This document shows, piece by piece, positions 35,631-63,229 of a stretch of 64,000 nt of DNA (the first letter of the stretch is position 1; each line of letters opens with the position of its first letter). The stretch comes from Candidatus Aenigmatarchaeota archaeon (GTDB lineage: Archaea; Aenigmatarchaeota; Aenigmatarchaeia; CG10238-14): positions 16,999 through 80,998 of the forward strand of contig JAGVVZ010000002.1 in the NCBI GenBank assembly GCA_018304545.1, given 5' to 3'. Made by a program: the position numbers and the translations under genes. Below the pieces are notes generated by a model. That model saw only the letters and a program-made list of their open reading frames with translations, ran no database searches and was not told the DNA's origin.

Positions 35631-35734
35631 CGCCCTGGTCGGGATTTGAACCCGAGTCCTAGGAGTGACAGTCCTAGATTCTACAACATCATGAAATAAT
35701 AATGTTTTGATAGGCCAGGCTACACCACCAGGGC
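35631..35734 (-). tRNA. tRNA-Asp(GTC) with a ~30-nt insertion between D-arm and anticodon stem (non-canonical intron; exact boundaries unresolved)
   Basis: Minus-strand read: GCCCTGG-TG-GTGTAGCCTGGCCTATCA-[aaaacattattatttcatgatgttgtagaatc]-TAGGA-CTGTCAC-TCCTA-GGAC-TCGGG-TTCAAAT-CCCGA-CCAGGGC-G. Good acceptor, anticodon arm (GUC) and T-arm. Confidence 0.6.
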
Positions 35735-35820: not shown

Positions 35821-35938
35821 GAGTTGGCAACGTCCTGAACTTCCCACCCAAAGGCAGTACAACTCAGATCACCGAAAAACTTAACTTCCGTGTTCGAAAT
35901 GGGAACGGGTGTTTCCTTTTCGTTTTGGTCGCCAACTC
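35821..35938 (-). rRNA. rrf: 5S ribosomal RNA (standalone, not linked to 16S/23S in this window)
   Basis: Minus-strand sequence GAGTTGGCGACC...CACCCGTTCCCATTTCGAACACGGAAGTTAAG...GTTGCCAACTC. It carries the universally conserved 5S loop-C/helix-III block and complementary termini (helix I). Confidence 0.85.
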
Positions 35939-36057: not shown

Positions 36058-36173
36058 TCCCCCCGGCCGGAGTTGAACCAGCAACATCACGGTATCTATT
36101 GAGCCCATGCTGGTGACAAACACATAATGTGCTCGTCTACAGCCGTGCGCTCTGCCAGTTGAGCTACAGGGGG
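36058..36173 (-). tRNA. tRNA-Tyr(GTA) with a ~43-nt canonical (37/38) intron
   Basis: CCCCCTG-TA-GCTC-AACTGGCA-GAGC-G-CACGG-CTGTAG[intron acgagcac...caatagat]A-CCGTG-ATGTT-GCTGG-TTCAACT-CCGGC-CGGGGGG-A; acceptor has one G-U pair. Confidence 0.8.
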
Positions 36174-44495: not shown

Positions 44496-44585
44496 AGCCC
44501 GGTAGTGTAGCGGTCAAGCACACTCTTTTGAGGCTTAAAGTGGGCTTTGGACCCATTAACTCAGGTTCGAATCCTGACCGGGCTA
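44496..44585 (+). tRNA. tRNA-Gln(TTG) with a ~17-nt insertion between position 26 and the anticodon stem (non-canonical intron)
   Basis: AGCCCGG-TA-GTGT-AGCGGTCAA-GCAC-A-[ctcttttgaggcttaaa]-GTGGG-CTTTGGA-CCCAT-TAAC-TCAGG-TTCGAAT-CCTGA-CCGGGCT-A. Confidence 0.65.
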
Positions 44586-54872: not shown

Positions 54873-54955
54873 GGGCTAGTAGATCAACGGTAGATCGCTT
54901 CCTCGGCATTATAACGAATTGGAAGAGGCTTGGGGTTCAAATCCCCACTGGTCCA
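54873..54955 (+). tRNA. tRNA, probably Ala (G3:U70, A73; candidate anticodon GGC) with an ~11-nt insertion in the anticodon arm; encoded CCA follows (54956-54958)
   Basis: GGGCTAG-TA-GATC-AACGGTA-GATC-G-CTTCC-[tcggcattataacgaatt]-GGAAG-AGGCT-TGGGG-TTCAAAT-CCCCA-CTGGTCC-A-CCA. No splice position yields the usual U33, so isotype and intron placement are uncertain. Confidence 0.55.
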
Positions 54956-57494: not shown

Positions 57495-57613
57495 GCGGGA
57501 GTTGCCAAGCCTGGTCAACGGCGCAGGACTGATTAACTCAGTGTGAGACTTAAGTTGACTATAGGATATCCTGTCCCTTAGTGGGTTCGCAGGTTCGAAT
57601 CCTGCCTCCCGCA
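57495..57613 (+). tRNA. Type II (long variable arm) tRNA, Leu-like D-arm, with a ~33-nt insertion in the anticodon arm; anticodon not resolved
   Basis: GCGGGAG-TT-GCC-AAGCCTGGTCAAC-GGC-G-CAGGA-[ctgattaact...ataggata]-TCCTG-TCCCTTAGTGGGTTC-GCAGG-TTCGAAT-CCTGC-CTCCCGC-A. Simple exon joins give GAT/GAA/GGA loops with U37, so splice sites are probably non-canonical. Confidence 0.55.
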
Positions 57614-57658: not shown

Positions 57659-57757
57659 GCAGGGGTACCTGAGTTTGGTTAAAAGGGTAGGGTTCAGGAC
57701 AACGGTGGAAGGCCCTATGGTTTAGTACCTTCGAGAGTTCGAATCTCTCCTCCTGCA
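57659..57757 (+). tRNA. tRNA-Leu(CAG), type II, with a 13-nt intron at or next to position 37/38-38/39
   Basis: GCAGGGG-TA-CCT-GAGTTTGGTTAAA-AGG-G-TAGGG-TTCAGGA[caacggtggaagg]-CCCTA-TGGTTTAGTACCTTC-GAGAG-TTCGAAT-CTCTC-CTCCTGC-A. Mature loop TTCAGGA = U33, CAG, G37, A38. Confidence 0.65.
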
Positions 57758-62150: not shown

Positions 62151-62618
62151 TTGTTAGATAATATCAAAAGAGAGTTAAGAAAAAAATTCAAATGGTCTGT
62201 TGATATCACAAATCCCTTAGAAATACCGCAGAATATTTTTAACAAATTTAGGAACCAATATGAATCATCGCTTACCTTAGAATTTTTAACAAAACAATTT
62301 CCAGATGATCATGTAGTAGCTATAACTAATTCTGATTTATATACTACGGGATTAAATTTCATTTTTGGACAGGCAAAAATAGGAAAGGCTATGATAGTGT
62401 CAACTCACAGATTGGCTCCGACATTCTACAAAGACCGAGGCAATGAAAAATTACATCAAGATAGAGTATTAAAGGAATGTGTGCACGAAATAGGTCATAT
62501 GTTTGGACTGCAGCACTGCAAAGAAAGAGGTTGTATAATGTCACCTTCTGGAACAATTAAAGATATAGATAACAAATCAATAGAATTCTGTCATATGTGC
62601 GAACTTCAATTAAAATAA
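62151..62618 (+). CDS. amzA: Archaemetzincin (zinc metallopeptidase)
   Basis: HEIGHMFGLQHC ... C-x2-C signature (HExxHxxGxxHC plus Cys4 zinc site); 155 aa. Confidence 0.85.
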   Translation: MLDNIKRELRKKFKWSVDITNPLEIPQNIFNKFRNQYESSLTLEFLTKQFPDDHVVAITNSDLYTTGLNFIFGQAKIGKAMIVSTHRLAPTFYKDRGNEKLHQDRVLKECVHEIGHMFGLQHCKERGCIMSPSGTIKDIDNKSIEFCHMCELQLK

Positions 62619-62680: not shown

Positions 62681-63229
62681 TTGCTTATGTTAGAAGGAGA
62701 GTTAATTGAAAACAGAGTAAACATAAATGACAAAGAAGGACTGGATTTATATGATGAAAATGGGTATGGTAAGCCATTAGAAAATGAATTGGAATTGGCT
62801 CTTGTAGAAGCAGTTTTTTTGTTGAAAAAAGACAAACTAAAAGTTTTCAGCACAAAAAATAATAAAAGAAATTTTTGGAAATATGATGACTTCTATAGAT
62901 ATGCTTCTGAAAAAGAACCTGAGTTCCATCAAAAATTTGTTGTGTATTCAGATTTGAGAGAAAGGGGTTATTTAGTTAAAACTGGTTTTAAATTCGGTGC
63001 CCATTTTCGTGTATATGAAAGAGGTGTTAAATTAAAAAGGGGGCCAAAAGCACCGCATGAACACACAAAATTTGTAGTTCATTCTATTAAAGAAGAGGAT
63101 AGATTCTCTTATCCAGAATTGTCTCGAGCTGCTAGATTAGCACAAAATATAAGAGCGAAAATGGTATGGGCTGTTGTGGATTCTGAAAATGATGTAACAT
63201 ACTATACAATAAATAGATTCACACCATAA
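62681..63229 (+). CDS. endA: tRNA-splicing endonuclease, catalytic (alpha-type) subunit
   Basis: 182 aa; ..YSDLRERGYLVKTGFKFGAHFRVYERG.. and C-terminal ..HTKFVVHSI......SRAARLAQNIRAKMVWAVV.. with catalytic Tyr/His/Lys positions. Confidence 0.85.
   Translation: MLMLEGELIENRVNINDKEGLDLYDENGYGKPLENELELALVEAVFLLKKDKLKVFSTKNNKRNFWKYDDFYRYASEKEPEFHQKFVVYSDLRERGYLVKTGFKFGAHFRVYERGVKLKRGPKAPHEHTKFVVHSIKEEDRFSYPELSRAARLAQNIRAKMVWAVVDSENDVTYYTINRFTP

Follow-up and report, generated by a model that had tools for sequence, protein, structure and literature searches.

We found that the splicing endonuclease gene (endA) in a 64-kb stretch of aenigmatarchaeal DNA (hereafter the window) encodes a single alpha-type subunit with a lysine-rich insertion, the L3 loop, in its catalytic domain, and we put a probability of about 0.7 on this EndA being a homotetramer with loop-broadened specificity. 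The earlier note on this DNA had expected a specificity mismatch between such an enzyme and irregular tRNA introns, on the rule that alpha4 enzymes cleave only strict bulge-helix-bulge (BHB) motifs. Kaneta et al. 2018 (PMC5829648) have since revised that rule and rate the subunit type as the least contributor to substrate recognition. Since the L3 loop, which published work already connects with the cleavage of irregular introns, is present, the mismatch is largely explained. We propose that the protein acts as the sole tRNA/rRNA splicing endonuclease subunit, with one polypeptide holding both of the functions that heteromers split between two. In an alpha4 assembly, cleavage at the two bulges of the bulge-helix-bulge would fall to one pair of subunits, with the remaining pair keeping the dimers joined, and the relaxed and misplaced introns would most likely be removed via L3.

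The open reading frame at 62681..63229 (+) is real and, as called mechanically, starts with TTG and has 182 codons for amino acids. The true start is likely the ATG at 62687, which gives a protein of 180 residues (62687..63229, +); this assignment draws on the ORF list, the Pfam EndA N- and C-terminal domains, the sequence of the start region and the start of the closest relatives, which begin MLEGEL. A TATA-like A/T-rich stretch lies about 25 nt 5′ of this ATG, in a window with a G+C content of about 30%. Residues are numbered throughout from TTG 62681. The protein matched PF01974 at 1.4e-26 (92.8 bits) and PF02778 at 5.2e-13. The N-terminal domain (aa 5-56; 62693..62848, +) is defined by PF02778, and the C-terminal catalytic domain (aa 82-174; 62924..63202, +) by PF01974 and by comparison of an AF2 model with the M. 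jannaschii EndA structure 1a79. This model (pLDDT 89, pTM 0.87) had 1a79 as its top PDB match (TM 0.82/0.87), with further matches to 2cv8, 3ajv and 5x89. The full-length sequence alignment to M. jannaschii EndA was likewise the best among solved structures (1.7e-29), and the protein could also be aligned with the M. kandleri, ARMAN-2, N. equitans, A. fulgidus and A. pernix enzymes. The nearest homologues are proteins of 175-190 aa from Aenigmatarchaeota MAGs; the best genome match was 95% identical among the matches listed, with one genome per species. By itself, a length of 182 aa would fit either an alpha4 subunit or the alpha of an (alpha-beta)2 enzyme. The top protein match (P0001, 180 aa) is identical to the window EndA over about the first 130 residues and then follows the sequence type of another subgroup, which suggests that it may be a chimeric or recombinant entry.

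An alignment to characterised EndAs, proposed earlier as a way to look for the specificity loop, revealed L3 and no CSL/ASL insertion. The gap between the catalytic Tyr and His is 15 residues in the window EndA versus 9 in M. jannaschii. The stretch from Tyr112 to His128 (63014..63064, +), ERGVKLKRGPKAPHE, encloses the lysine-rich loop and aligns without gaps to the N. equitans alpha subunit, in which GVIPKKGKRSEREH is the counterpart of the window's L3 segment GVKLKRGPKAPHEH. The loop contains four Lys and one Arg. Across 54 aenigmatarchaeal alphas, G121, P122 and K123 were invariant and K119 was nearly so, and this invariance argues for a selected function of L3. As for the CSL/ASL (L1/L2) insertion, it is absent from the window protein, which aligned to the loop-less M. 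jannaschii enzyme without gaps over aa 6-56. The N-terminal domain of many other aenigmatarchaeal alphas bears an acidic insertion of four residues (KPLPEExP), at about the place taken by the CSL/ASL loops in EndAs of other lineages; the carriers are P0028, P0033, P0065, P0067, P0070 and other alphas of 187-190 aa (alignment A1, columns 37-40).

Fujishima et al. 2011 had drawn attention to a lysine-rich insertion in the C-terminal domain, for which Kaneta et al. 2018 introduced the name L3 in a survey of EndA types, loops and tRNA disruption in 46 archaea (PMC5829648). The latter study reports that L3-bearing alpha4-type EndAs are found in several DPANN lineages and accompany a greater disruption of tRNA genes. 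In the literature, the link between L3 and specificity is correlative, and mutational proof is limited to the CSL and ASL loops. By its sequence, the window EndA belongs to this L3-bearing DPANN alpha4 class, with which it has in common that the alpha is encoded by one gene, that the C-terminal domain bears L3 and that the host has many disrupted tRNA genes; the class was described there bioinformatically, without biochemistry (PMC5829648). The closest likeness of the loop itself is to N. equitans NEQ205 (PDB 3IEY), the alpha of an (alpha-beta)2 enzyme, which has its insertion at this very site, equally long and with matching basic residues. N. equitans EndA cleaves non-canonical BHB motifs (cited in PMC5829648). 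Unlike the window EndA, NEQ205 is without most of the N-terminal domain and without L10, needs the beta subunit NEQ261, and keeps the canonical catalytic Lys (STRKK). In the published description of the N. equitans and ARMAN-2 enzymes, insertions at the L3 site are placed near the RNA bulge, and L3 of the window protein would by analogy lie close to it as well.

A T-arm scan identified six tRNA genes in the window, all of them interrupted, with seven introns between them (one gene has two), and all six spliced products formed cloverleafs after BHB threading and in-silico splicing. The introns of Asp (24/25), Gln (25/26) and Leu(UAA) (30/31) are at non-canonical sites. Thus, the earlier statement that non-canonical tRNA introns lie nearby was borne out and was even an understatement, with six of six genes interrupted and three such sites. 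The genes are 5-27 kb away from endA, not next to it as had been written. By manual threading, on which the BHB classes are based, most of the motifs were relaxed, and at least five of the seven introns depart from the strict rule in motif or in position.

On the minus strand, tRNA-Asp(GUC) (35631..35734) has a 29-nt intron (35679-35707) at 24/25, as established by threading, by ARAGORN on the spliced product and by an MFE fold. Its motif is HBh′, with a 4-bp H helix (CUAU/GUAG), two 3-nt bulges, an 8-bp h′ and no contiguous h; in the MFE fold of the pre-tRNA, an alternative 5-bp outer helix lies beside H with a 1-nt offset, and the motif is then less relaxed. The neighboring tRNA-Tyr(GUA) (36058..36173, -; Rfam 49.1 bits, BHB scan and splicing) has a 43-nt intron (36094-36136) at 37/38 with a near-canonical hBHBh′ motif. 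A 5S rRNA gene (35822-35936) stands alone between these two tRNA genes; it is unlinked from the rRNA operon, since no 16S or 23S gene is found in the 64-kb window. On the plus strand, tRNA-Gln(UUG) (44496..44585; Rfam 44.4 bits, manual threading and splicing) has a 17-nt intron (44522-44538) at 25/26, with an HBh′-like motif of H AAGC/GCUU, a 3-bp h′ and a 1-bp h. The gene at 54873..54955 (+), which the earlier note had taken for a Phe tRNA, is tRNA-Ala(GGC) with G3:U70 and A73, as assigned from a weak tmRNA-clan match, splicing and ARAGORN. Its 11-nt intron (54909-54919) is at the canonical 37/38 position but is relaxed and bulge-helix-loop (BHL)-like, and its MFE fold has a 5-bp h, a 3-nt bulge, a 3-bp H and a 9-nt loop. 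The anticodon loop of the spliced tRNA-Ala reads UCGGCAU, with C33 in place of the near-universal U33, and no alternative splice register restored U33. tRNA-Leu(UAA) (57495..57613, +; Rfam 40.8 bits, BHB scan and splicing) has two introns, one of 20 nt (57528-57547) at 30/31 in a well-formed BHB and one of 13 nt (57555-57567) at 37/38 with an h′ of 1 bp. tRNA-Leu(CAG) (57659..57757, +; Rfam 43.6 bits, BHB scan and splicing) has a 13-nt intron (57699-57711) at 37/38, also with a 1-bp h′ and BHL-like.

Standard tools performed poorly on these genes. With Rfam, four tRNAs passed the gathering threshold, which Asp and Ala did not reach, and two weak matches to the tRNA clan were obtained. The default mode of ARAGORN found one tRNA and typed it as Lys, where it is actually Gln, and in intron mode it misidentified genes with non-canonical introns (as Ile or Leu). 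The D-arm introns of Asp and Gln escaped the automatic BHB scanner, whose minimum for the outer helix was 2 bp, and were threaded by hand. Since standard finders recover one of the six tRNA genes, and mistype it, the tRNA sets of such genomes will look incomplete.

The spread of intron motifs bears on whether the enzyme could be an ordinary strict alpha4, with introns that either fold in vivo into acceptable BHBs (through alternative outer helices, modification or chaperones) or are cleaved slowly but sufficiently. The alternative 5-bp outer helix of pre-tRNA-Asp is consistent with this, and so are the Tyr and Leu(UAA) 30/31 introns, which form near-strict BHBs, BHB recognition being position-independent; according to PMC5829648, even the loop-less M. 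kandleri EndA cuts an HBh′ D-arm intron weakly. However, an h′ helix cannot be accommodated in the 11-nt intron of Ala or in either of the 13-nt Leu introns, which puts the 5′ site in a loop, and loop-less enzymes are reported not to cut BHL substrates. The invariance of the three L3 residues also speaks against it. We therefore regard a strict enzyme as unlikely and favor a homotetramer whose specificity is broadened by L3.

Next to the substrates, the subunit composition has to be considered. The EndA tetramer is built by two contacts, one of which is the insertion of loop L10 into a basic pocket of the opposite subunit. In the window EndA, the acidic L10 loop (D167-S-E-N-D171; 63179..63193, +) is followed by a VTYY strand and aligns with IVDADGDIVYY of M. 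jannaschii; L10 and the terminal strand, AVVDSENDVTYY, are intact, and the AF2 model places strands at 160-166 and 172-177 on either side. In single-gene alphas, D167 is invariant, D171 is nearly invariant and position 169 is mostly E. The catalytic Tyr and His, the acidic L10 and the C-terminal strand are thus all found in one 180-aa polypeptide, and on this combination the window EndA most likely assembles as an alpha4 homotetramer like that of M. jannaschii.

The window was scanned in six frames with HMMs, and no second EndA-like ORF was found in its 64 kb, which confirms that endA is its only splicing endonuclease gene, as the earlier note had stated. We also scanned genomes, with one genome per species, for the loci of the best 80 of more than 590 confirmed matches. 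Among these and L005, the closest relative of the window locus, 79 were single-gene loci with no second EndA-like ORF within 4 kb of the alpha; L3 was present in nearly all of the 79, and L10 was intact in nearly all of them.

Single-unit relatives with the Tyr but without the His surfaced in a profile-free search of 1.8 billion representatives. A query with one of these His-less relatives returned a family of beta-like proteins of 161-176 aa, several of them annotated as Aenigmatarchaeota, which are without the His, without the second half of L3 and without the triad Lys, and in which L10 is strongly conserved (AVVDNDxDVTYYI). In all eight beta lineages inspected, the beta gene is immediately upstream of an alpha gene (in one of them with a single intervening gene), and the usual tandem order is M54 peptidase-beta-alpha-CBS. 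Tandem beta-alpha loci were located at L002:10001-11061, L085:1774-2816, L086:6001-7061, L088:6001-7013, L090:3001-4079, L091:3001-4566 and L092:386-1448. L10 was degenerate in all five of the tandem alphas checked (AIVNEECRVGYYQ, AVVDENKEVKYFE, AVVSGGKVGYYQ and AVVDGNEVRYYS). To judge from these motifs, the tandem pair is a case of reciprocal subfunctionalisation, in which the beta loses the His and half of L3 but retains L10, and the alpha retains catalysis but loses L10.

The M54 peptidase (archaemetzincin) gene served as a synteny marker (62151..62618, +; PF07998, and gene order in L002, L005, L088, L090 and L091). In the window, it is directly upstream of endA with a spacer of 62-68 nt, so that the slot for a beta is empty, and L005 likewise has M54-endA and no beta. 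An NJ tree grouped the window's alpha and its relatives as monophyletic (100/100); the betas and the tandem alphas, with a further set of single alphas, formed a separate clade (85/100), within which the betas (98) and the tandem alphas (93) were each monophyletic. This topology places the endA duplication in the sister lineage, after its split from the window's clade. A heteromeric EndA would seem to have arisen independently within the phylum, in a sister aenigmatarchaeal lineage. The tandem systems share with the window locus the phylum, often the M54-endA synteny, and an alpha with L3 and the motif NIRA; unlike them, the window gene is single and undivided.

The existence of this His-less, Lys-less paralog family in Aenigmatarchaeota MAGs is what makes an (alpha-beta)2 heterotetramer worth weighing, in which a non-catalytic beta encoded elsewhere in the genome would supply the L10 contact and relax the specificity, as in Crenarchaeota and N. 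equitans; the sequence covered here was 64 kb, and the scan took in the best 80 of more than 590 confirmed matches. Against it, the betas sit just upstream of the alpha in eight of eight lineages (once with a single intervening gene), a place that M54 occupies in the window; the five examined tandem alphas have lost the acidic L10, which the window alpha keeps; the tree puts the duplication in the sister clade after the split; and the window holds no paralog. We consider such a heterotetramer quite unlikely in this organism. From the empty upstream slot, the intact L10, the tree and the lack of a paralog in the window, the source genome very probably has a single endA. The earlier note had left a choice between a beta subunit elsewhere and an alpha with broadened specificity: the second is favored by L3, and the first is true of the sister lineage and very probably not of this genome.

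The active site of the window EndA is conserved at two of the three triad positions. Tyr112 and His128 align with Y115 and H125 of M. jannaschii, and both are invariant in 54 relatives. R152, which is also invariant in 54 relatives, aligns with the bulge-stacking Arg (R327 of M. kandleri, R275 of ARMAN-2), and R179 is a candidate for the second bulge-stacking residue (Arg or Trp). At the position of the canonical catalytic Lys, gapless alignments to five solved EndAs place Ala159 (63155..63157, +), whose counterparts are K156 in M. jannaschii, K334 in M. kandleri, K287 in A. fulgidus and K282 in ARMAN-2; the anchored gapless stretch around it reads RLAxNIR-A versus RVAHSVR-K (NIRA versus SVRK). 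The triad-Lys site is Ala, Ser or Thr across the aenigmatarchaeal alphas and betas (P0001-P0120, L006-L084), and also in Nanohaloarchaeota and related DPANN sequences. In M. kandleri, the K334A mutation abolished activity (PMC5829648). With Ala at this position in the window EndA, its active site cannot work exactly as in M. jannaschii. That the enzyme is catalytically impaired without this Lys, as the inactive M. kandleri Ala mutant would have it, and that another nuclease does the splicing is very improbable, given that the substitution is common to hundreds of relatives keeping the Tyr, the His, the bulge-binding Arg152 and L3, that these loci have a sole EndA-like gene in genomes full of BHB introns, and that the truly non-catalytic paralogs differ in having lost the His and half of L3.

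Across the family, no consistent replacement for the triad Lys was identified. K160 as a catalytic Lys shifted by one residue was rejected, the site being variable in the family (K, T, N, H, R, E). The candidate substitutes are the invariant K123 on L3, followed by K119, K130 and R158. One tentative proposal, which we hold as possible but doubtful, is that the EndA active site has been rewired in a DPANN clade comprising Aenigmatarchaeota, Nanohaloarchaeota and relatives, such that the role of the lost Lys at the scissile phosphate has passed to Lys123 of the GPK motif, or to K119, K130 or R158. In that case, L3 would belong to the catalytic center and not be just a specificity add-on, and a mobile catalytic Lys might let a plain homotetramer cut distorted bulges and loops. 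A strict coupling between loss of the Lys and gain of L3 was weakened as an idea: Thr occurs at the site in some loop-less single-unit relatives, and some L3 bearers keep the Lys. The loss of the triad Lys in the EndAs of this clade was not mentioned in the portions of the literature searched, and the available text of Kaneta et al. 2018 (PMC5829648) mentions neither this loss nor an aenigmatarchaeal beta paralog. The search of representatives also returned a fused EndA of two units (P0122, 360 aa), 42% identical to the window protein, with NIRSK in both units, L3 in the second only and L10 in the first only; it would be an alpha′2-like fusion born inside the same Lys-less clade.

Compared with M. 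jannaschii EndA (alpha4, PDB 1A79), the window protein has the same architecture, with a single N-terminal and a single C-terminal domain in a subunit of about 180 aa, and the same catalytic Tyr and His, bulge-binding Arg and acidic L10 plus terminal strand. It differs in the 6-residue lysine-rich insertion between Tyr and His and in the Ala at the position of Lys156, and its host has relaxed and non-canonical introns which are reportedly not cut by the M. jannaschii type. With the epsilon2 EndA of ARMAN-2 (Ca. Micrarchaeum; PDB 4FZ2, 9W2K), an enzyme of broad specificity, it shares the DPANN affiliation and an insertion at the L3 site, which in ARMAN-2 is between Tyr236 and His251. Unlike the window EndA, the ARMAN-2 enzyme consists of three fused units and keeps Lys282, and its specificity has been mapped to the ASL (Y160/K161), which has no counterpart in the window protein.

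Taken together, these results remove a false alarm, as from what is now understood of DPANN archaea a single alpha-type EndA is to be expected alongside irregular tRNA introns. Published work already accounts for the mismatch itself, and the noteworthy parts are the missing triad Lys and the tandem system of the sister lineage. The locus offers a compact pair of enzyme and substrates, a 180-aa EndA with six natural substrates that span strict BHB, HBh′ and BHL motifs. For specialists, the interest lies in an "essential" triad Lys that is naturally absent across a clade, and in a tandem beta-alpha arrangement that looks like a within-phylum origin of heteromeric EndA.
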